Shown in pieces: positions 8,228 through 41,531 of a DNA stretch of 64,000 bases (the first letter of the stretch is position 1; every line of letters begins with the position of its first letter). The position numbers and the translations under genes were made by a program. The DNA is taken from NCBI GenBank assembly GCA_001000675.1, contig LCHW01000002.1:69310-133309 (forward strand). Reading direction: 5' to 3'. Source of the DNA: Candidatus Wolfebacteria bacterium GW2011_GWE2_44_13. Lineage in GTDB: Bacteria > Patescibacteriota > Minisyncoccia > UBA6257 > UBA9933. Below the pieces are notes generated by a model. It did not search any database. It worked only from the letters and a program-made list of their open reading frames with translations, and was not told the origin of the DNA.

Positions 8228-10045
8228 ATGTCATTAGAAGAATTGGAAAAAAAATTATACGGAGTTGATAGAAAAGAAGAGTCAGGCGAGCGGCCAGTAG
8301 AGGCGCATGTACCAAAACAAGAAGCTACTGAGGTGCAAACAGGGTGGAATGCAGAAGCTGCCTCGGGGGAGATACAGCCAAAAGGAAAAGCAGTAAAAAT
8401 GACCGTGATTGGGGTCGTTTTGGCACTGCTCGTTATTGGAGGAGTTTCTTATTATTACATTTCAGAATTTTATAAAACAAAAGATTTGCTGTTTGAGGCG
8501 GAAACGGTGGAGAATATTCTTATCGCACGACCGTTCGATGTTACTGTGAATGTAGAAAATAGATCGAGAACAAGATTACGGGATGCAAAGATTTTTGTAA
8601 CACTGCCCGATGGTGTTATTTCTACCGACACGGCAATGAATCGACAAACAATCGAGGAGTCGGTGGGAGATTTAAATGCAGGAGAGATGATCGAGCGAAC
8701 GTACTCGGTTATCGTAGTGAAAGACGAACAGTCGACCAAAAAGATGGACGTCAATTTTTCCTATTTACCCGAGAATATCAATACGCGGTTTGAGCGCGAA
8801 GAAACATTGGAAGTGCGTGTGGGGCAACCAGCAATCACGCTCGATTTTACAACACCGCAAAATGTGTTCAGCACAGAAAACTTTGACATAGGAATGCGCT
8901 ATAGAAACATTTCTGATATTGATTTTAGAAACGTGCAGGTTCGCTTAATTGTTCCGCCAAAAGTTTCAATCAAGAGTGCCTCAGTAAAGGCAACGACTGG
9001 CGATGCAACGTGGAATGTCGACATACTAAAGCCACAAGAAGAGCGGGCAATCGCAGTAAAGGGTGCTTTTGAAGGAGCGAATCAAGAATTCTTTGAGTTG
9101 AAGAGCCAGGTTGTGGTGATGATAAATGGCCAAGAATATATCATAGGAGAAAAAACGGCAAACCTCGGCATCGCAGCATCTCCATTAAGTCTTGCAATCA
9201 CCGCAAACAATAGAACGGATTATGTAGCAAACCTCGGAGAAGCAATTACCTATACATTAACGTATCGCAATAATACGGATGTGGGGTTGAGTGACGTAAT
9301 TATAAAAGCAAAATTAAAGGGAGAGCTGTTTGATATGGTATCGGTGCGAAGTGAGGGGGGATTTGATTCGCGCACAAATACACTTACGTGGAACACTGCA
9401 GGGATTCCCGCATTGAAATTAATTGGTCCTGGTGTTGAGGGAAGTGTTGAATTTACAATACAAACAAAAAAGGTATTTCCGATCAAACGAATGTTTGATA
9501 AGAATTATGTATTGCAGGTAGCGGGTGAAATCAATTCACCAACTGTTCCGTATAATGTAGCAAGTGATAAGACGGTTGGTTTTGCTGACAGTGAAACGAA
9601 AGTAGCGGGTAACATTACTATTGATACGAAAATAGCGCTCGCTTCTGGATCGGCAGCACCACAAGTAAACAAGCCATCAAAATATTTGGTTACGTGGACG
9701 ATTAGAAACTACGCAACCGATATGCGCGATATAAAAATAAATAGTTCTTTGCAGCCAGGAATAGTGTGGACAGGGGTTGCGAAGGGAAGCAACGGGTCGG
9801 TACCAACATACAATGACCGAACAGGAGAAATAGCATGGGCAATCGAAAAGATTGTTGCAACAAAAGGTGTGATCGGTGCCCCTACTGAAGCAACCTTCCA
9901 AGTGGAGATAACACCTAATATTACGCAGATAGGAGGCTCAATAGAAGTTACAAAAGACGGCATAATGACGGCGGTGGATGATTTTACGGGTATGAGCGTG
10001 ACGCGACAAGTTAAAGGGTTGTTAGCGCCTGGCGCATCTCGATAA
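8228..10045 (+). CDS. Large membrane-anchored surface protein with repeated beta-sandwich (DUF11-like) domains.
   Basis: N-terminal TM helix (VIGVVLALLVIGGVSYYYI) followed by ~500 aa of repeated Thr/Asn/Val-rich segments. Confidence 0.5.
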   Translation: MSLEELEKKLYGVDRKEESGERPVEAHVPKQEATEVQTGWNAEAASGEIQPKGKAVKMTVIGVVLALLVIGGVSYYYISEFYKTKDLLFEAETVENILIARPFDVTVNVENRSRTRLRDAKIFVTLPDGVISTDTAMNRQTIEESVGDLNAGEMIERTYSVIVVKDEQSTKKMDVNFSYLPENINTRFEREETLEVRVGQPAITLDFTTPQNVFSTENFDIGMRYRNISDIDFRNVQVRLIVPPKVSIKSASVKATTGDATWNVDILKPQEERAIAVKGAFEGANQEFFELKSQVVVMINGQEYIIGEKTANLGIAASPLSLAITANNRTDYVANLGEAITYTLTYRNNTDVGLSDVIIKAKLKGELFDMVSVRSEGGFDSRTNTLTWNTAGIPALKLIGPGVEGSVEFTIQTKKVFPIKRMFDKNYVLQVAGEINSPTVPYNVASDKTVGFADSETKVAGNITIDTKIALASGSAAPQVNKPSKYLVTWTIRNYATDMRDIKINSSLQPGIVWTGVAKGSNGSVPTYNDRTGEIAWAIEKIVATKGVIGAPTEATFQVEITPNITQIGGSIEVTKDGIMTAVDDFTGMSVTRQVKGLLAPGASR

Positions 10046-30273: not shown

Positions 30274-30406
30274 ATTTACAAAATACCCGGTCCTATTAAT
30301 AGGACCGGGTATTTTGTTTGAATTCTGGTATAAACTATTGCGTGAGAATACTGGATTCCGACCTGCGCCGGAATGACAGATGCATTCTTCCTGTCGCATG
30401 TCGCTT

Positions 30407-33254: not shown

Positions 33255-33683
33255 ATGGAGACGCCGAAGAGAAAGAGAATTCTATTGATTGAGGGGACAG
33301 AATTACCGAGCAATACGGTGATTGAGCTGGTAAAGGCGGGGTACGTGCTCGAGTGGAATCTGCTCGACGAAACTACACCCGGGCGAATCAAACAGCAGTA
33401 TTCTCTGTACGATGTAATTGTCATCGGAGGAAGCGTAGAACGAGAAAAGCAGCACGAGCTGTTGCGAGCAATCTCGATTGTCGAGGGCGATGCCGTGAGA
33501 TTGCTTGTACCCGTGGTTTGCGTGGACCTTCGCGTTCCAAGGATAATTCGGCTCCAGGACCTCGTGTTGGTGCCGGATCAATTCGACGCCATTGCCGATG
33601 GAGTCAAAAGGGCGTTAGCCGATTTGGCTGGCGTAATGCGGCGCATGATGGAGCGCACTGCTGCGCGGGAGGCGAAGACATGA
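33255..33683 (+). CDS. Stand-alone pseudo-receiver (REC-fold) protein, array member 1. Phospho-acceptor positions degenerate.
   Basis: REC-like beta/alpha pattern: RILLIEG (beta1, DD replaced by EG), YDVIVIGG (beta3, Asp replaced by Gly), LLVPVVCVD (beta4). GC-rich. The overlapping frame 33353.. is Arg-rich off-frame. Confidence 0.55.
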   Translation: METPKRKRILLIEGTELPSNTVIELVKAGYVLEWNLLDETTPGRIKQQYSLYDVIVIGGSVEREKQHELLRAISIVEGDAVRLLVPVVCVDLRVPRIIRLQDLVLVPDQFDAIADGVKRALADLAGVMRRMMERTAAREAKT

Positions 33684-34024
33684 TAAAAAAGAAAACGCCC
33701 ACCATACCCGTATTGCTCGTCGGCAGCCGGGTGCTCGCAGAAATGTACAGGGAGCTGCTTGAAGTGCACAGCATTCAAGCCGATTGGGTGCGAAGCGATT
33801 TGACGGCATTTTCGATGCTTGAAATCGAAGGCGAGTACGACATTATCGTCGTGGACGGGTCGGCAATCTGCGGAGACTTCCTCGTCTTCATAGAAAGGTT
33901 GTACGAGGAAGTGCCTCCCTGGACATGGGTCGTTGGGTCGACGCAGATAAATGATGACACGCGTACGCAGCTTGTGCAGATGATAGTTGAAGATCTCGCT
34001 GCGCGAGGAAAAGTAATGCCATAG
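33680..34024 (+). CDS. Stand-alone REC-fold protein, array member 2 (retains Asp in the beta3 position).
   Basis: PVLLVGS (beta1), YDIIVVDGS (beta3), ATGA overlap with member 1, terminator gtggcggaccgaggtccgccac plus T-run at 34036..34066. Confidence 0.5.
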   Translation: MIKKKTPTIPVLLVGSRVLAEMYRELLEVHSIQADWVRSDLTAFSMLEIEGEYDIIVVDGSAICGDFLVFIERLYEEVPPWTWVVGSTQINDDTRTQLVQMIVEDLAARGKVMP

Positions 34025-34204
34025 TGCGAGCTACGAGTGGCGGACCGAGGTCCGCCACTTTTTTGTAAAAAGAAAATAATATGCAGCTTAAAAGATGCGT
34101 AAGATAGAAAAGTAGTATTCGATTGACAAAAGCTGACTGAAGCTGTATTAGATAATTAGTAAATAAAATCTCCGCACTACGCGGATCATAGAAAGGAGCA
34201 ACCC

Positions 34205-34555
34205 ATGAGGCGACTGCATATTTTGTTGATAACGAATCTGGAATGTGAGACGGAAATTGCCCAGCACCTACTTAAGGCGATGGGGCATGATCTTGATGAG
34301 GTGTATGATGCGATATGGGCGATTGAAAAAATTTCCCATAAAACATTTGACGCCATTATCGTTGCAGAATTTTCAGTAGAAGAGGCGGAGCTGATCGTGT
34401 GCGATATCAGGATGCAAACACAACAAAACATGTATAGTATTATCCTTAACAAGGAGGCTCAGCACAAAGAGCATAATGACTATGCTGATGAAGTGATTCC
34501 GTTAACTCGCCCGGCGCTGCGGGACGCATTGGCGCGCAAATTTAGCGGAGTGTAG
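34205..34555 (+). CDS. Stand-alone pseudo-receiver protein, array member 3.
   Basis: HILLITN (beta1), FDAIIVAEF (beta3, Asp replaced by Ala/Glu). Own TTGACA promoter. Terminator gtggcgagcccaggctcgccac at 34558..34587. Confidence 0.5.
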   Translation: MRRLHILLITNLECETEIAQHLLKAMGHDLDEVYDAIWAIEKISHKTFDAIIVAEFSVEEAELIVCDIRMQTQQNMYSIILNKEAQHKEHNDYADEVIPLTRPALRDALARKFSGV

Positions 34556-34663
34556 TAAGTGGCGAGCCCAGGCTCGCCACTTTTTTGTAGAAAATTTGAC
34601 CAACGCTTAGCTTTGTGTTATGAGTAATACAGTTCAAGTAAAATTCAATACAGAAGGGGAAGG

Positions 34664-35107
34664 GTGAAAATGAAAATTTTAGTTGTGGATGACGCGATGG
34701 CGAGTAAATACGTGGAAGCACTCATACTTGCCGGATACATGGTTGAGAGTGTACCAAGCGGAGAACAGGCATTGCGCAAAATTATGCAAGAGGGAGGGTA
34801 CGATCTGATGATTGTTACCCCGCGCATCTCTGACATGGAACCGGTTAAGCTTGTGAAGAAATGCCTAATGCCTTTACGAAGCAGGATGAAAACCATCGTG
34901 CCAATCATTTTGGCAGAGCGGCATGGCGACCGAATTACGCAAAATTGGTTTGTGATTGCTCCTGATGAAGTTGAGTCAGTGAAGCAAGCGATGAGAGATT
35001 GCCTTAACTTGCATCCGCCACAAAAAGAGAAGCCGGTGGAACAGCGAGAAGGGTTCTTTCATTGCTGGTTTAAAGATGTTTGGTGGCAACTGGGAATATC
35101 CTGGTAA
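34664..35107 (+). CDS. Stand-alone pseudo-receiver protein, array member 4 (keeps the beta1 Asp-Asp pair but lacks the phospho-acceptor Asp).
   Basis: KILVVDDAMAS (beta1), YDLMIVTPRISDMEPVKLVKK (beta3-alpha3, Asp replaced by Thr). Terminator gcggcgagcttaggctcgccg at 35130..35159. Confidence 0.55.
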   Translation: MKMKILVVDDAMASKYVEALILAGYMVESVPSGEQALRKIMQEGGYDLMIVTPRISDMEPVKLVKKCLMPLRSRMKTIVPIILAERHGDRITQNWFVIAPDEVESVKQAMRDCLNLHPPQKEKPVEQREGFFHCWFKDVWWQLGISW

Positions 35108-35257
35108 CCCCTCCTCCTTAATAAGAATGTGCGGCGAGCTTAGGCTCGCCGTTTTTTTAATAAATAAATCAGAAGGCTAACTTGACCGGATAAGAGATGA
35201 CGTGGTATGTATAAGATAGTTATTCAATTAAATAAATAGAGGGAAGGAGCTGAGCGG

Positions 35258-35659
35258 ATGCGTGCAAACGTGAAAAAGCCAAGGATCCTTATGGTGTGTC
35301 GAGGTATACGAGGATCACGACACAGGGAACATGCAACAGACCTGCGTAAGCGCGGATATATTGTCGAGTTTGTGGGTGATGTTAATAATCCGGAGGACCT
35401 ACTTGCAAGTGATTGGTATGAGGCAATCATAATCAATCGCGAAGTGGGATCCTTGTCTTGCAGAAAGGGTGATGGGTATGCATTTGCGAGGGAGGTTCGG
35501 GAAATCTATCCAGCGTTACCCATAATCGTAATTGATCGTAACTTAGCAAAAACACACGTCTACTCAGAAGACACACTGATGCAGATTGTGTGGGATGAGG
35601 CGGGATGGATTACAAATGCATTAGCAAAAATATTTCACCAAGAACCTTCTTTTGCATAA
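35258..35659 (+). CDS. Stand-alone pseudo-receiver protein, array member 5.
   Basis: RILMVCRG (beta1), YEAIIINRE...GDGYAFAREVREIYPALPIIVID (Asp replaced by Asn, then alpha3-beta4). GGAAGGAG RBS. Confidence 0.55.
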   Translation: MRANVKKPRILMVCRGIRGSRHREHATDLRKRGYIVEFVGDVNNPEDLLASDWYEAIIINREVGSLSCRKGDGYAFAREVREIYPALPIIVIDRNLAKTHVYSEDTLMQIVWDEAGWITNALAKIFHQEPSFA

Positions 35660-35684
35660 CATCGGTACGAAAGGATCTGAACGA

Positions 35685-36125
35685 ATGAGTGCGAGCGTGA
35701 AAAAGCCAAAGATTCTAATAGTATATCCAGTTCTGACGGAAGCCGAGAATGATCGATTCTGTATTGATTTGCGAGTTTTGGGGTACGACACGTACCTTAT
35801 GACAAGCGTGAGAGGTCTCGACAGAGATCTCGGCGCAACGAGATACGCCGCAGTTATTATTAGCAAGGCGATGCGCGACCCGCACCATGCGGGTAGCGAT
35901 GGCTATTCACTGGCCAGTCGCATCAAGAAAAGCAAACTTGCTATGCCGGTGATCGTGTTGGATCCGACGTGCGGGAATGCAGAAGATTGTATGCGGCTAG
36001 ACACGGGAGTGCGGGTCATCCCTGACACAGCGAGGAACCTCGAATACGTACTTGCAGAGTTATTCTACCCCGAGCGGGTAGAGCGTTTACGCATACATGC
36101 GGGCGCGATAGTCAAAGAGGGATAG
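35685..36125 (+). CDS. Stand-alone pseudo-receiver protein, array member 6 (closest paralogue of member 5).
   Basis: MSASVKKPKILIVYPVL resembles MRANVKKPRILMVCRGI. YAAVIISKAM...GSDGYSLASRIKKSKLAMPVIVLD (Asp replaced by Ser). Terminator at 36130..36163. Confidence 0.55.
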   Translation: MSASVKKPKILIVYPVLTEAENDRFCIDLRVLGYDTYLMTSVRGLDRDLGATRYAAVIISKAMRDPHHAGSDGYSLASRIKKSKLAMPVIVLDPTCGNAEDCMRLDTGVRVIPDTARNLEYVLAELFYPERVERLRIHAGAIVKEG

Positions 36126-36160: not shown

Positions 36161-38362
36161 TTATATCGTAGCGAGTGTTGGTGAATCAAACTTCACAGAC
36201 AATAATTTGGAAGTACCATCGTCATTCATGGTCACGCCGTAGAGTACGTCAGCTGTTTCCATAACGGTACGGTTATGCGTAACGACGATGAACTGCACTT
36301 TGTGTGCGAACTCTTTGATAAGGTGTGCAAATCGTTCCGAATTGCGTTCATCAAGCGGAGCGTCAATTTCATCAAGTACGAGAAATGGGGGAGGGCTTAC
36401 AGAAATAAGTGCAAAGAGTGCTGCGATAGAAACAAGACTCTTTTCTCCACCCGAGAGCACGTCAAGGCTGTTGATGCGTTTCTTCGGGAGGCTGAGTTCT
36501 ATTTCGATACCCGATTGCAATGGCTCTTCCGCCTGTTTCTGTTCTTCAAATTCAGACGTTTCTCCGCTTAGCTCTTCGACAATATGTTCAATGCTATGTG
36601 TCTTGATTTTCATCTTTGCCGAGCCACCGCCAAACATAAGACGAAAGAAGTGATTGAATTGATCGTTAATGTCTTTGAAGGCAGCATTGAATTTTCCGGT
36701 TACATCGCGCTTCAACTCTTCAACAAGCTCATTCAAGTCGGAAGATGCTTTTTCTAAATCGGCCGATTGAGTTACGAGATGTGCATGATGGGTCTCCACT
36801 TCGTTTGCTTCGGTGATAAGCGATTCATCTACGTCACCGATAGAGAGAAGTTCGGCACGGAGACGAAAAATCTGACGCTCTAAATCGGACAGTTGAAATT
36901 CAGAAAGAGATTCAGTGGAGCGAAGTGAGTCAAGCGCGGATTCTTCGTGTTCGTTTCGCACCCATTCAGCACGTAAATCAGTAAGACGGATAGAAACTTT
37001 TTCATTTTCAAAGGTAAGGTGCTGCACGCGATTTTCTATGGCACGAATTTCTTCGCGTTTAGCCTCTACAAGACTAAATGCTTCACGAAATCGTTGGTTA
37101 AAATCCGTAAGGCCTTGCGATAAAGATTCCTGCGCTTCCCTTACAAACTTAAGATTTTCATCAAGTCCAGCAAGAGCAAAAAGGAGATTATTTTTATCAT
37201 GTTCAATGTCTGCTTGTTCTGCGGAATAGTCAGGCTTTGGCAAATCAAGTTTTGGAGGGTTGAGATACGAATCTATTTTTGTGATAAGGGATTTAATTGT
37301 ATGGGAAAGTTGCGCAACATCATCTGATGAAGCATTTTCTTCAAGTGCATGCTTGATTTGGCGAATCAACGCGAGCATTTCTTCTTTGCGATAAACAACG
37401 CCTTGGTCCGATGTGGTGTCAGTAGAAAATTCAAGCTTCGCTTCGAGGCGGGCAACATCTTTTTGTAATTGAAAGCGCTTTGCGAGTAATGCGGTTTCCT
37501 CTGCCTTTAGCGTCGCAGCTTCCGCGTGTTGATCTTTCGTTGATTCAATTGTTTCGAGGGATTGTTGTAATTGTGAGAGTTCTTGTTGCTTGCGCGTGAT
37601 GTCTTCTTCTAACGCAAGAAGACTTGCTTTGTTTTGGCTTAGCTTGTCTTTAAGCGTAGAAACTTTTGTTCCGAAATACGATTGTTCTGCTGCAATTAAT
37701 TCATCGCGTTTTTGGTCGCGCGTTTGATATTTGGCAACTTGTCGCTTTAACATACGTAAGCGAGGAGTAACTTCTTCTATCATAATGCGGATCTTTTCAA
37801 GATTAAGCGCGGTGTTTTTTAGTTTTCGTTCAGCCTCAAGCTTTTTTAGTTGGTACTCTTTTAGGCCAAGGATTTCCTCAATCATAAAGCGACGCTCTTG
37901 GGGAGTTGCACGCACAAAAAGATCGCTCGAGCCCTGGTTGATGATCGTAAGGCCGCGCGTGCCCAAACGAGAGCGGGCAAAGAAGTCGATAATATCTTTT
38001 GCGCGCACATCAGATTTGTTAAGCCCATAGGTTGAGTTTCCATCGCGAGAGATTTCGCGGCTTACGGTAACCTCATCAAAATCAAGCGGGAAAAATTTAC
38101 CGCTGTTATCGAAGTTGATGCTTACTTGTGCCATGCCAGAGCGGGCGCGCTTAGGAGTGCCGGCAAAAATAAGATCTTCCGCTTTGCCACCGCGGAGATT
38201 CTTTGCCTCGCGTTCGCCGAGAATCCAACGAATCGCATCGATGACGTTTGACTTGCCGCTACCGTTTGGGCCTACGATGGCAGTAATGCCTCCGGGGAAT
38301 TCCAATACGGTTTTTTGTGCGAACGATTTGAATCCGTTCAGTTCGAGTGATTTCAGCAGCAT
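36161..38362 (-). CDS. smc: SMC-family chromosome segregation ATPase, short form (733 aa).
   Basis: N-terminal Walker A (GPNGSGKSN), long coiled-coil, C-terminal signature LSGGEKSL and Walker B/D-loop (FLVLDEIDAPLD). A hinge region is not obvious. Confidence 0.8.
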   Translation of the reverse strand: MLLKSLELNGFKSFAQKTVLEFPGGITAIVGPNGSGKSNVIDAIRWILGEREAKNLRGGKAEDLIFAGTPKRARSGMAQVSINFDNSGKFFPLDFDEVTVSREISRDGNSTYGLNKSDVRAKDIIDFFARSRLGTRGLTIINQGSSDLFVRATPQERRFMIEEILGLKEYQLKKLEAERKLKNTALNLEKIRIMIEEVTPRLRMLKRQVAKYQTRDQKRDELIAAEQSYFGTKVSTLKDKLSQNKASLLALEEDITRKQQELSQLQQSLETIESTKDQHAEAATLKAEETALLAKRFQLQKDVARLEAKLEFSTDTTSDQGVVYRKEEMLALIRQIKHALEENASSDDVAQLSHTIKSLITKIDSYLNPPKLDLPKPDYSAEQADIEHDKNNLLFALAGLDENLKFVREAQESLSQGLTDFNQRFREAFSLVEAKREEIRAIENRVQHLTFENEKVSIRLTDLRAEWVRNEHEESALDSLRSTESLSEFQLSDLERQIFRLRAELLSIGDVDESLITEANEVETHHAHLVTQSADLEKASSDLNELVEELKRDVTGKFNAAFKDINDQFNHFFRLMFGGGSAKMKIKTHSIEHIVEELSGETSEFEEQKQAEEPLQSGIEIELSLPKKRINSLDVLSGGEKSLVSIAALFALISVSPPPFLVLDEIDAPLDERNSERFAHLIKEFAHKVQFIVVTHNRTVMETADVLYGVTMNDDGTSKLLSVKFDSPTLATI

Positions 38363-38410
38363 GATGTTGTTACTATACTATAAAAAATGGCGTATTTCCA
38401 TGGGGAAAAC

Positions 38411-38578
38411 GAGGGAGGGTGTCATTCCCGCGGCCTGCTCCGTGTAAGAATAAATACTCCGCAGGCATTTCGGCACGTTGCACGCTTGCTTCGCTCGCTA
38501 GCAACGCCAAGTCAAGGCGGGAATCCATCCCCGCCAGTAAAATACTGGATTCCCGCCTCCGCGGGAATGACAGTAGGC
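38411..38578. repeat. Cluster of ATTCCC-N8-GGGAAT-type palindromic repeats: half-site at 38421..38433, IR GGCGGGAATCC...GGATTCCCGCC at 38517..38558, full unit at 38548..38574.
   Basis: Inverted repeats seen directly. Same family as 39098..39121, 39138..39160 and 40796..40821. Confidence 0.7.
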
Positions 38579-38707
38579 GGGGAGTTGGCAATATAGGAGG
38601 TTGACAGATTTGCAATATTATAGTAATGTATATAAATACAAATAAGGGTGGTAACGGCATTGTGCCAATAGGACTTTTCAAACCGAATAGTGAAAGGAAA
38701 AAAGAAG

Positions 38708-39043
38708 ATGGATAGCTATACGAAAAAGGTATTGCTGGTGATTGCACTTGCATTCGTGGTAGCAATAGCTTATCGGGTTGCTATTATGAAACCCGAAGCA
38801 GATGTGAAGGTCCAGCCGTATCCGGCGACAGTCCTGACGGATATGCAGATTGACAGGTACGGAAACATTATGTATCCCCTGTACTTTTGCATCGACGGAA
38901 GGTGTCGCACTCGAGTGACGTGCGGGAATGAATCCACCCCGCTATTCGAAAAAGGGAACAGGGTTACAGTGTGGCTTAAAACCAGCCCGCTGGAAGGGTC
39001 TGACTTGCTTTGCCTTGATAAGGTCGAGCTCGTCGGCCGATAA
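38708..39043 (+). CDS. Small membrane-anchored/secreted Cys-containing protein, paralogue A.
   Basis: N-terminal anchor LLVIALAFVVAIAYR. YPLYFCIDGRCRTRVTCGNESTPLFEKGNRVTVWLKTS aligns with paralogue B. Conserved TTGACAGATTTGCA promoter and 5'UTR. Terminator at 39058..39092. Confidence 0.6.
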   Translation: MDSYTKKVLLVIALAFVVAIAYRVAIMKPEADVKVQPYPATVLTDMQIDRYGNIMYPLYFCIDGRCRTRVTCGNESTPLFEKGNRVTVWLKTSPLEGSDLLCLDKVELVGR

Positions 39044-39097
39044 CTATTTCCGAAAAGTTCGTCGGGGCGCCACAAGGCGCCCCATTTTTTGTCCCGT

Positions 39098-39160
39098 GTC
39101 ATTCCCGCGGAGGCGGGAATCTAGTATTCAGCCAAATGGATTCCCACCTGTGCTGGAATG
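39098..39160. repeat. ATTCCC-N8-GGGAAT palindromic repeat (gtcattcccgcggaggcgggaatc) plus a degenerate partner copy.
   Basis: Seen directly. Same arrangement as 38517..38574. Confidence 0.7.
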
Positions 39161-39285
39161 ATAATACAAAAAGAAGAGAGTAATGAGAGATTGACAGATT
39201 TGCATTATTGATGTAATACATATTTATACAAATAGGCTAATGGCATCGTGCCAATAGGACATTTAAAAATCGAGAGGAATTCGAG

Positions 39286-39642
39286 ATGAGCGGTCGTGTG
39301 AAAACGTTTTTGTTAATAACTGCGCTGTTCTTGGTATTGGCGATAGCGTATCGCGATACCAGCCTCAAGCCCAAAGGAAGCTCTATTCACGAATACACGG
39401 TAACGATTATGAACAACGCGCAGATTGTAGATTTTTTCAAGGATAAGCCGTATCTGGCGTACCCTGTCTATGTGTGCGGAGACAGCAAAGAGTGTGCTAT
39501 GCGAATCCTTCCTGCTCGCGCAGTTCCGACTCCGCTCTATCAGGGGAATAAAATTAGTATCAGGACGAGCGAAGATATTAGCCAGACCGAAGGGCTGCTA
39601 TCGGTAGAGGACATTACACTGGTGATTATTGACACCCAGTAA
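39286..39642 (+). CDS. Small membrane-anchored/secreted Cys-containing protein, paralogue B.
   Basis: LLITALFLVLAIAYR anchor and YPVYVCGDSKECAMRILPARAVPTPLYQGNKISIRTS. Same promoter/5'UTR module as paralogue A. Terminator at 39643..39680. Confidence 0.6.
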   Translation: MSGRVKTFLLITALFLVLAIAYRDTSLKPKGSSIHEYTVTIMNNAQIVDFFKDKPYLAYPVYVCGDSKECAMRILPARAVPTPLYQGNKISIRTSEDISQTEGLLSVEDITLVIIDTQ

Positions 39643-39744
39643 AGTGAGGAGGCGCTGCAAGGCGCCTCATTTTTTACGGGGTTGCATTTATATTGCGAAA
39701 GGAGTATTACATATAGCTGTACAGCACATTAACAAAAGGCAAAA

Positions 39745-40177
39745 ATGCCTACTATGGGCCTTGGTGGGCCGTCGAACATACACCGCGCTTTCTTGTGTGA
39801 GAGCAGATGGAGAAAAAGTGGAACACATTATTGTGAGTGCAGTGGGGAATCTTTCGAGGCAATGCACATTTTCGTTTGTGCTGGTTGGCGTACATGGAAC
39901 AACGCCATGGAAGCCGCCGTACACAAAGGCATATGCTGTCATAATCGTACGGGTAAGCGGGCCTCCGAATGAGGTCGCCGCATTTTCAAAAGCGCTAAAA
40001 AGAGAAGCGAGCCGAACAAAGTCCTGTATTACGGTTGGGGCTGACGGTCGCTTCGACGCAGAAAGCGCTGAGAAAACGTACAGCGTCGAAATACTCGTGC
40101 CTGATAACTTTGGAACTCCACAGGAGTTCCTCAGTGGTAAGGCGAGAAAAATCGAAGACGCTTGCAAGAAACCGTAA
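39745..40177 (+). pseudogene. Frameshifted paralogue of 40300..40755. The conserved N-terminal peptide MPTMGLGGPSNIHRAF is in one frame. The homologous body continues in the -1/+2 frame to 40177.
   Basis: N-terminal 16 codons align with MPYLGLGGPSNMHRPF of the intact paralogue, mostly by synonymous differences. After ~39800 the frame with body similarity (LVGVHG..W...KAYAVIIVRVS vs LLGSHEW..KSDMVTVILAFSRS) is the other frame, which has no ATG. Terminator at 40195..40232. Confidence 0.5.
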
Positions 40178-40299
40178 AGGTTTTTGTAAGCATACAGAAT
40201 AAGCCGCGTCCTTGTGACGCGGCCTTTTTTAACTTGATAATTATTTTATGAAGTGGTATGACGTAGATAGTTACCTTATCAAAAGAAGCAAAGGCAGTA

Positions 40300-40755
40300 A
40301 TGCCTTATCTGGGCCTCGGTGGGCCGTCTAATATGCACCGACCCTTCGTAAGAAGGAGAAGAGGAGTTGCTATGACTGAGAAGAGAAGGCCAGGAAAGAA
40401 AGAGCGATTGGAAATGCCCTACAAGAGAATTTTTATCGAGGGCAACGAAGTGGGGCAGCTCTATTTACTAGGGTCTCATGAATGGGACGACAAGTCGGAT
40501 ATGGTCACGGTAATCCTTGCGTTTTCGAGAAGTAAATACGAAGGATATTTCATGGCGCTTATTCTCAGCGAAAATTTCTTTTTTATGAACGGAAGAACCA
40601 TTGAGGACTTCACGGGTAAAAGGAAGATGATGACTGGGACGTTGCGACAATTAGTCCCGCGGCAGGGCGACCAGATAGGGTTTATAGCAAATATTGCCGA
40701 GCGCATAGGGAAGGTCTTGGGAACGCACCTTCCGAGCCTCGAAGAGATGGGATAG
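40300..40755 (+). CDS. Hypothetical protein with conserved N-terminal peptide MPYLGLGGPSNMHRPF (intact paralogue).
   Basis: 151 aa. AAAGG RBS before ATG. Terminator at 40760..40795. Confidence 0.55.
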   Translation: MPYLGLGGPSNMHRPFVRRRRGVAMTEKRRPGKKERLEMPYKRIFIEGNEVGQLYLLGSHEWDDKSDMVTVILAFSRSKYEGYFMALILSENFFFMNGRTIEDFTGKRKMMTGTLRQLVPRQGDQIGFIANIAERIGKVLGTHLPSLEEMG

Positions 40756-40795
40756 TGCAAAAAGCCGCGAGTAATCGCGGCCTTTTTTTGTATTG

Positions 40796-40821
40796 TCATT
40801 CCCGCGGAGGCGGGAATGACA
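40796..40821. repeat. Perfect ATTCCC-N8-GGGAAT palindrome gtcattcccgcggaggcgggaatgac at the 3' end of rnc.
   Basis: Seen directly. Confidence 0.75.
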
Positions 40822-40823
40822 GA

Positions 40824-41531
40824 TTACACCTCAAACTTTTTCAGCGCATTCTTTGCTGATTCAATTTCTGCCTCTTGTTTGGAGAATCCTTTTCCGCGAG
40901 CAGCAAATGTTTCACCAAAGTACACACCAATTTCAAAAATTTTATTATGATCAGGGCCTTCTTCACCGAGTACGACGTAGCGAGGGGTTACCTTATGTTT
41001 TTCTTGCACAATTTCTTGCAGATGACTTTTTGGATCTTTGTGAAGATTGTTTGCAACAATGTCTGCTGAGTGACTAAGTACTTGGTCGGTTATAAATTTA
41101 GCTGCGGCAGCATATCCTTGATCAAGATAAATAGCACCGATAAGGGATTCAAACGCGTTTGCTAAGATAACTTCTTTTGCACGAGCAGTATCCTTTGCTT
41201 CTCCGCGGGAAAGTAAAATAGAGCTGTGCATTTTAATACTATCAGCGATACGTGCCAAAATTTGGTAGTTTACAAGCGCTGCGCGAATACTCGTGAGCTC
41301 TCCCTCAGGAGATTGAGGGTAGGTATGGAAAAGATATTCCGTTACGACAAGTTCAAGTACTGCATCACCTAAAAACTCGAGCCGTTCATTATGAGGAACA
41401 CCCCATTTAGGATTTTCATTAAGATACGAACGATGCGTAAGTGCTTCTTTAAGTAAGTCGAGATTAGTAAATTGAATCCCGATTGTTTGCTGTATTTTTT
41501 CGAAGTGATTCACGGTTGAATCATTATTCAA
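40824..41531 (-). CDS. rnc: Ribonuclease III.
   Basis: RNase III signature ERLEFLGDAVLELVVTEYLF and a C-terminal dsRBD. Confidence 0.9.
   Translation of the reverse strand: MNNDSTVNHFEKIQQTIGIQFTNLDLLKEALTHRSYLNENPKWGVPHNERLEFLGDAVLELVVTEYLFHTYPQSPEGELTSIRAALVNYQILARIADSIKMHSSILLSRGEAKDTARAKEVILANAFESLIGAIYLDQGYAAAAKFITDQVLSHSADIVANNLHKDPKSHLQEIVQEKHKVTPRYVVLGEEGPDHNKIFEIGVYFGETFAARGKGFSKQEAEIESAKNALKKFEV

Follow-up and report, generated by a model that had tools for sequence, protein, structure and literature searches.

Tandem genes for small, predicted exported proteins in Candidatus Wolfebacteria share a conserved promoter-plus-leader module

Short elements in the leaders of bacterial mRNAs can set stability or translation, as is the case for the 5' stem-loop of E. 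coli ompA, the aprE leader of B. subtilis, the STAB-SD of cryIIIA and the GGA sites of the CsrA type. At the level of gene families, the erp genes of Borrelia burgdorferi (OspE/F-related, with an 'upstream homology box') carry conserved 5' promoter/operator DNA that lets one set of trans-acting factors co-express the paralogues (PMC9112904). Here we describe two tandem genes, A1 and A2, located between smc and rnc in a 64,000-nucleotide (nt) stretch of the genome of Candidatus Wolfebacteria bacterium GW2011_GWE2_44_13 (contig LCHW01000002.1, positions 69,310 to 133,309 of the forward strand); this whole stretch is referred to as the window, and coordinates are those of the window unless a locus is named. 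As in erp, these are paralogous genes for predicted exported or surface proteins that have conserved 5' DNA and leader or N-terminal residues together with divergent bodies (PMC9112904). Shared upstream DNA combined with divergent exported products makes A1 and A2 erp-like, a likeness of organisation only, since the two systems have no sequence relationship. The erp genes, with about 10 loci per cell, code for lipoproteins, are carried by cp32 prophage plasmids and are regulated via a 145-bp operator upstream of the promoter, whereas A1 and A2 are two chromosomal tandem copies that lack a lipobox and whose conservation extends from the promoter into the transcribed leader. The organisation is already familiar; the protein family and the small leader motif are new and very narrowly distributed.

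The reading that best accounts for the observations reported below, to which we assign a probability of roughly 0.6, is that A1 and A2 are independently transcribed, co-regulated copies of one gene. Their shared promoter and leader would be under purifying selection, a trans-acting factor would act on a stem-loop/GGAC element of the mRNA, and the product would be an exported protein with an OB-like fold. Four small transcription units, all on the same strand and each with a clear intrinsic terminator, occupy the interval from smc (36161 to 38362, minus strand) to rnc (40824 to 41531, minus strand). A preliminary description, made from the DNA letters, had placed genes at 38708 to 39043 and 39286 to 39642 and had each of them end in a hairpin terminator. 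Both open reading frames (ORFs) are present there, each with AGGA upstream, and were called identically by the NCBI and JGI gene callers; a G+C-rich stem-loop followed by a T-run lies behind each of them (39064 to 39090 and 39649 to 39675). The two terminators consist of G+C-rich 8-bp stems, 4-nt loops and TTTTTT (hairpins 39064 to 39083 and 39649 to 39668) and are 85% alike, with one compensatory G-C/A-T stem pair. As read from its sequence, each gene is a self-contained monocistronic unit made up of a predicted sigma-70-type promoter, a leader of 58-70 nt, a Shine-Dalgarno sequence, an ORF and an intrinsic terminator, as follows.

38597 to 38682, plus strand: A1 promoter-plus-leader module, with -35 TTGACA (38601 to 38606), a 17-nt spacer and -10 TAATGT (38624 to 38629)
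38656 to 38677, plus strand: A1 leader motif, with stem-loop GGCA-UUG-UGCC (38656 to 38666), AAUA and GGACUUU (GGAC at 38671 to 38674)
38695 to 38698, plus strand: A1 Shine-Dalgarno sequence AGGA, 9 nt 5' of the ATG
38708 to 39043, plus strand: A1 coding sequence, 111 residues, with a predicted Sec-type helix (residues 3-26), a linker and an OB-like beta-barrel
39064 to 39090, plus strand: A1 intrinsic terminator, GGGGCGCC-ACAA-GGCGCCCC, then a T-run
39187 to 39268, plus strand: A2 promoter-plus-leader module, with -35 TTGACA (39191 to 39196), a 17-nt spacer and -10 TAATAC (39214 to 39219)
39241 to 39263, plus strand: A2 leader motif, with stem-loop UGGCA-UCG-UGCCA (39241 to 39253), AUA and GGACAUU (GGAC at 39257 to 39260)
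39275 to 39278, plus strand: A2 Shine-Dalgarno sequence AGGA, 7 nt 5' of the ATG
39286 to 39642, plus strand: A2 coding sequence, 118 residues, with the same predicted architecture as A1
39649 to 39675, plus strand: A2 intrinsic terminator, GAGGCGCT-GCAA-GGCGCCTC, then a T-run

The two modules (38597 to 38682 and 39187 to 39268) are 81% identical, whereas shuffled controls reach 59% +/- 2.6 (z=8.6). In both of them the order is TTGACA, a 17-nt spacer, TAATGT or TAATAC, an A/T-rich stretch, the stem-loop and AAUAGGAC(U/A)UU. The 33-nt promoters are 85% identical (z=4.5), spacer and hexamer flanks included. Two sequences from this region, TTGACAGATTTGCA and GGCATYGTGCCAATAGGAC, each occur exactly twice in the window, where 0.04 chance matches would be expected for the 19-mer. 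The likeness ends with the module: the Shine-Dalgarno-proximal 17-25 nt that follow, AGGA among them, are only 35% alike between A1 and A2. The promoters are predicted to be of the sigma-70 type, and the start of transcription is presumed from their position.

Over their full length, the A1 and A2 proteins align with 30-31% identity (E=8e-14) and have YP.Y.C and a second Cys in common, in keeping with the paralogy and the conserved Cys, Tyr and Pro positions of the preliminary description. That description had also proposed a duplicated promoter and leader module whose protein bodies had diverged much more, and this is what we found: against the 81% of the module, the coding DNA is 46% identical. 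Third codon positions agree in 27.5% of cases, which is the random level, and in the codon alignment the proportion of synonymous differences (pS) is 0.83, that is, saturated, with a proportion of nonsynonymous differences (pN) of 0.45. With synonymous positions at this level, the identity of the module is no mere leftover from the duplication. The likeness of the non-coding modules is consequently maintained by selection, by gene conversion, or by both. The pair has the appearance of an old tandem duplication of a lineage-specific gene, apparently duplicated only in the window's species.

Relatives of A1 and A2 were sought among 5.8 billion proteins with a word-indexed search and among 1.84 billion representatives with an exhaustive HMMER search. 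The family consists of six proteins at 90% clustering, all from Candidatus Wolfebacteria and belonging to three species groups. Beyond A1 and A2 there are four true relatives, namely three 119-residue proteins (P0011, P0005 and P0010) of the Wolfebacteria RIFOXYD12_FULL_48_21 group and one protein of 123 residues (P0006). The A1 and A2 proteins are themselves also present in Candidatus Wolfebacteria GW2011_GWC2_39_22 and in Rifle-aquifer metagenomes, and the window matches GCA_003508115.1 (contig DNTT01000008.1); the five contigs with A2 are all 99.9-100% identical to the window. In a metagenome scan with a closer subset of the family, only one group of loci matched, here called the L007 group (L-numbers designate individual loci). 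No sequence relatives were found in Pfam, NCBIfam, PHROGs or PDB. We rejected the giant MBG_2 repeat proteins (PF18676) as relatives: their E values of 1e-12 to 3e-4 arise only through 3-12 weak stretches, and the hhalign probability is 0.3%. A phage origin was also ruled out, there being no PHROG match, and no match of the leader 19-mer in IMG/VR.

The leader element recurs at the orthologous genes. We defined a composite motif as a G+C-rich stem of 4-5 bp with a 3-nt loop, followed after 3-4 nt by GGAC(A/T)TT. In the window it occurs in the A1 and A2 leaders only, with 0.12 chance matches expected per 64 kb on both strands. Every L007-type locus has it once, directly upstream of the orthologue, in the form GGGCG-UAU-CGCCC ACG GGACAUU, and nowhere else. 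Between the lineages, both members of two of the five stem pairs have changed (A-U to G-C and U-A to G-C), so that pairing is kept by compensatory changes. All four lineages (A1, A2, the L007 group and L010) keep TTGACA, with a T/A-rich hexamer at a distance of 16-17 nt. These comparisons span considerable distances: between the window's species and those of L007 and L010, core genes have 73-80% DNA identity and the SMC protein 81-83% identity, with a pS of 0.81-0.83, which is saturated.

The comparison of L007 with L096 provides an independent replicate of the A1/A2 pattern, with a frozen promoter and 5' leader next to a free Shine-Dalgarno-proximal part. Only 1 difference was found in the 85 nt from the -35 hexamer to the end of the GGAC box, and 4 in the 20 nt before the start codon, while synonymous divergence (dS) is 0.20 for the homologue and, over the initial 200 codons of smc, 0.245 (range 0.20-0.25). 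Since the gene is single-copy in L007 and L096, gene conversion is no explanation there. In our view this replicate is the strongest argument that the module is under functional constraint. Together with the excess identity in the window, which lies far above the neutral expectation, it bears out the preliminary proposal of selection on the promoter or the regulatory leader. A regulatory RNA with a hairpin had been part of the same proposal; the stem-loop and the GGAC box are indeed there, the RNA structure being a stem-loop of 4-5 bp and no larger structured leader.

If the preferred reading is correct, A1 and A2 would have kept nearly constant the promoter and the initial 45-50 nt of the leader, with the stem-loop and GGAC(A/U)UU, while the coding sequence and the end of the leader next to the Shine-Dalgarno sequence drifted to saturation. 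A need for the same control in both copies would be the most likely reason for the constant module. A trans-acting factor would then most likely recognise the stem-loop/GGAC element on the mRNA and set its stability or its translation; an element acting at the RNA level is favoured because the changes in the stem are compensatory. Gene conversion between the tandem modules would possibly reinforce selection. With a short stem-loop and a purine-rich GGA box upstream of the true Shine-Dalgarno sequence, the A leaders presumably resemble the ompA, aprE, STAB-SD and CsrA elements, and a second GGA lies within the Shine-Dalgarno sequence itself, 20-27 nt downstream of the GGAC box. The likeness is incomplete: the stem-loop is about 20 nt from the predicted 5' end and not at the end itself, the GGGAC of the L007 group is a poor anti-16S match, and the GGA lies outside the hairpin loop, whereas typical CsrA sites have it inside. 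Neither a csrA gene nor another such factor was identified. Two other kinds of leader were considered and ruled out, a riboswitch-like structured leader by folding energies equal to those of shuffled sequences, and a coding upstream ORF (uORF) by the lack of a shared ATG, reading frame or three-base periodicity. Rfam 15 gave no match at gathering score in the window, and a permissive search of 38380 to 40830 gave matches only at E>=0.78, none of them in the leaders.

All six proteins begin with an n-region of charge +1 to +2 followed by 15-19 uncharged hydrophobic residues (15-16 in A1 and A2), and their maximum 19-residue Kyte-Doolittle hydropathy window is 1.96-2.73, as befits a Sec signal. 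On these features, export of the A1/A2 family via Sec is a well-supported prediction. The preliminary description had spoken of an N-terminal signal anchor: the Sec-type N-terminus, with its n-region, h-region and predicted helix at residues 3-26, agrees with it, and the sequences fit a retained anchor and a cleaved signal peptide alike. By residue inspection, a signal peptidase I site can be read as AIA-YR at -3/-1 in A1 and A2 and as AYA-LM in P0011; the sites in P0005 and P0006 are poor. AlphaFold models (mean predicted local distance difference test, pLDDT, of 81 for A1 and 76 for A2) consist of the helix at 3-26, a low-confidence linker and five to six strands. Each model retrieves OB-fold proteins (PriB, SSB, CusF, IF1, S12 and RPA) as its best PDB matches in Foldseek, which is consistent with an OB-like beta-barrel of roughly 80 residues.

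Two invariant Cys residues, one where strand 2 ends and one where strand 3 begins, are separated by 4-9 residues across the family. In A1 they are Cys61 and Cys66, which bracket the beta2-beta3 turn (further Cys at 72 and 102), and in A2 they are Cys64 and Cys70, around the corresponding loop. In the models this pair probably closes the beta2-beta3 loop as a disulfide, on the usual OB binding face. The N-terminal helix would thus target the product to the outside of the cytoplasmic membrane and then be cleaved or left as an anchor; a flexible linker would lead to the barrel, and the variable Cys-closed loop would probably be part of the ligand-binding face. In architecture, CcmE, CusF and YgiW/BOF are comparable, each with an N-terminal anchor or signal and a single small beta-barrel of five strands that lies outside the cytoplasm. 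Foldseek matched the A1 model to CusF and CcmE, among others, and the A2 model to CusF as well. We take the A family to lack conserved His or Met residues matching the haem-binding His of CcmE or the Met/His/Trp metal site of CusF; its signature is the Cys-x4-9-Cys loop instead.

A number of observations weigh against the preferred reading. At the promoters, the -35 hexamer is a perfect TTGACA, but the -10 hexamers TAATGT and TAATAC are weak, matching at 3-4 of 6 positions, and a consensus promoter scan made no call at either the A1 or the A2 promoter. The leaders are no more stable than shuffled sequence (folding z about 0) and the stem-loop has only 4-5 bp. The composite motif was defined only after all three leaders had been viewed, the similarity of whole leaders between species is not significant (z 1.2-1.8), and the covariation of the stem does not reach significance with three independent sequences, being attained in 61 of 500 shuffles. 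Moreover, a DNA palindrome bound by a dimeric protein would give identical symmetric changes. The promoter spacer is kept only within a genome or a clade (z about 0 between the window's species and the L007 group), a pattern that fits gene conversion too. Stem-loop and GGAC are both missing from the third lineage, L010, although the gene and TTGACA are present there. In L093, an insertion carrying a transposase (rve) has replaced the promoter and the stem-loop, yet the ORF is intact, so that the element is not indispensable. The OB-fold matches are weak (E>=5e-3, TM score 0.4-0.58, 7-18% identity). As to the structure of the L093 locus, an rve-family transposase gene (L093, 244 to 1619) lies directly 5' of the homologue; the insertion ends at the 3' edge of the hairpin, GGACATT is retained, and homology to the normal leader restarts exactly after the stem-loop, at GGACATTCACAAT.

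Concerted evolution might by itself account for the likeness of the modules: short-tract gene conversion would keep modules and terminators alike, without any function of the sequence beyond the promoter. At 31% identity, the A1 and A2 proteins are about as far apart as either is from the orthologues (36-37%), similar terminators recur among other tandem small genes nearby, and promoter spacer and flanks are alike in A1 and A2 and not between the window and the L007 group. This last contrast, within and not between clades, leaves room for A1/A2 gene conversion or for co-evolution with a clade-specific factor. Conversion cannot cross species, however, and yet the motif recurs at the orthologue with compensatory changes; the single-copy L007 group, which has no conversion partner, still shows the near-identity of the module described above; and the drop to 35% just upstream of the start codons would need very precise tract ends. 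We consider concerted evolution unlikely as the whole explanation. A serious rival, although in our estimate likewise an unlikely one, is a DNA operator. Here a dimeric repressor would bind the palindrome (T)GGCA-N3-TGCC(A), which lies about 20 nt beyond the presumed start, and would act as a roadblock; control would be transcriptional. The element is a perfect inverted repeat in DNA, conservation of the whole promoter within a clade, spacer included, suits a protein footprint, the leaders have no unusual RNA stability, and erp, the best-studied analogue, is controlled via operator DNA (PMC9112904). What speaks for RNA over DNA is that the half-sites have changed in parallel (GGCA/TGCC to GGCG/CGCC), a base-pairing signature that an operator could match only with a co-evolving protein. 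Furthermore, no gene for a DNA-binding protein is present at the window locus; a Trp-repressor-like gene is found only in L010, the lineage without the motif.

The preliminary description had suggested diversifying selection on the exported proteins and a dN/dS comparison of the two copies. Extended to a full alternative, this would mean positive selection on the mature proteins, for example at an interface with a host or a phage, next to a frozen regulatory region. Nonsynonymous divergence (dN) of the family is 4-6 times that of SMC for the same species pairs, the dN/dS ratio of L007 versus L096 reaches 1.24 in codons 1-58, and the length of the loop between the Cys residues varies from 4 to 9 residues. 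Between A1 and A2, pN (0.45) is below pS (0.83), and because dS is saturated the ratio cannot be estimated and the pair permits no such test. The L007 group is the sole comparison with unsaturated dS. There, codons 59-119, which encode the barrel core, have a dN/dS of 0.03-0.11, and the first 58 codons (anchor, linker and first strand) one of 0.5-1.24. The fast part is thus the signal/anchor helix and the linker. These values suggest purifying selection on the barrel core, with relaxed or positive selection apparently confined to the N-terminal half, and give no support to diversifying selection on the mature folded domain, which we rate as less likely than either of the two preceding alternatives. 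Least likely of all, in our estimate, is a further, more far-reaching interpretation. According to it, the stem-loop/GGAC box would be an undescribed cis-regulatory RNA of the Candidate Phyla Radiation (CPR) with a dedicated trans-acting factor, and the promoter-leader and terminator flanks would double as homology arms for swapping or duplicating alleles of a fast-evolving surface OB-fold protein, in an rnc-smc hotspot bounded by repeats resembling miniature inverted-repeat transposable elements (MITE-like repeats). The Cys-closed loop would then be a binding determinant, e.g. for a host-cell or DNA ligand of an episymbiont.

Every homologue lies between smc and rnc and is divergent from smc, and outside the window's species it is single-copy. 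Representatives of 42 related species encode rnc and smc on one strand, often overlapping and with a median distance of 48 nt between the two genes; in the window this gap is 2461 nt. None of 44 related species representatives has a homologue at this position. From this synteny and the lack of homologues in related loci, the A gene appears to be a lineage-specific insertion, antisense, into the ancestrally tight rnc-smc junction of some Candidatus Wolfebacteria, members of the CPR. At the same junction (loci L012 to L055), ten related species have gaps of 460-2566 nt with insertions unrelated to the A family; in this group, small accessory genes seem to have been inserted there repeatedly. Within the island of the window, the units are separated by the MITE-like palindromic repeat (TGTCATTCCCGCGG...CCGCGGGAATGACA), whose copies measure about 153, 67 or 28 nt; of the five in the window, four are in the smc-rnc gap and the fifth, a weaker one, is at 30355 to 30374. 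The repeat family is also found in related Wolfebacteria genomes, in L007 (about 934 to 1008, and 8568 to 8596) and in L096. An integron gene-cassette array was ruled out, since each unit has its own promoter and terminator and the repeat ends are TGTCATTCC...GGAATGACA and not GTTRRRY; no recombinase domain was found among the genes within 10 kb of the locus. The remaining features of the island are these.

38420 to 38572, no strand: MITE-like palindromic repeat element 1, with ends TGTCATTCCCGCGG ... CCGCGGGAATGACA, between the start of smc and the A1 promoter
39097 to 39163, no strand: MITE-like repeat element 2, between the A1 terminator and the A2 promoter
39735 to 40755, plus strand: second pair of small transcription units in the same island, B1 (about 39745 to 40177) and B2 (40300 to 40755), with terminators at 40203 to 40223 and 40764 to 40781
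40794 to 40821, no strand: minimal palindromic repeat copy of 28 nt, which closes the island beside the rnc stop codon

B1 and B2 also share a 5' segment, of 73 nt (39735 to 39807 and 40290 to 40362, 74% identity), and their downstream protein bodies are unrelated. From the ATGs at 39745 and 40300, these segments encode MP(T/Y)(M/L)GLGGPSN(I/M)HR(A/P)F. Of the six codons that are unlike within codons 5-16, five differ at the third position only, and the segment therefore looks like a shared N-terminal peptide or uORF and not like an RNA leader. The long ORF of B1 is read in the +1 frame with respect to this peptide, and this points to either a frameshift in the gene or a uORF that overlaps it. 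The stretch that borders smc on its far side (33255 to 36125) contains six small plus-strand ORFs without a solid family match, three of them with weak receiver-domain matches; it is missing from L007 and L010, where rpsP adjoins smc. Similar terminators with compensatory changes lie at 34036, 34558 and 35130, and the gene starts at 35244 and 35671 have 78% of positions in common along 60 nt. This stretch looks like another array of tandem lineage-specific paralogues. In L010 (6520 to 7020), the homologue is followed by a gene of the Trp-repressor family (127 residues; PF01371, E=2.7e-9), with copies of the palindrome GGTCTTAT(T/G)AATAAGACC on either side; as a homologue of B1 or B2 this gene was ruled out, there being no similarity. 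In L009 (4441 to 7537), the P0011 homologue lies beside a 470-residue minus-strand ORF (no Pfam match) that replaces the 731-residue smc, and rnc, nusB and rpmF are absent before ruvB; either the strain is rearranged or the contig is misassembled.

Since the family is very narrow (three species groups) and its organisation has well-known precedents, the general impact of these findings is limited. For the CPR bacteria, which are uncultured and on whose promoters, leaders and surface proteins almost nothing is known, the locus offers a small testable example of a conserved promoter-plus-leader. It further provides a candidate regulatory motif, the stem-loop and GGAC(A/U)UU, with natural loss and insertion variants, and an unannotated family of putatively exported mini-proteins with a predicted OB-like barrel.

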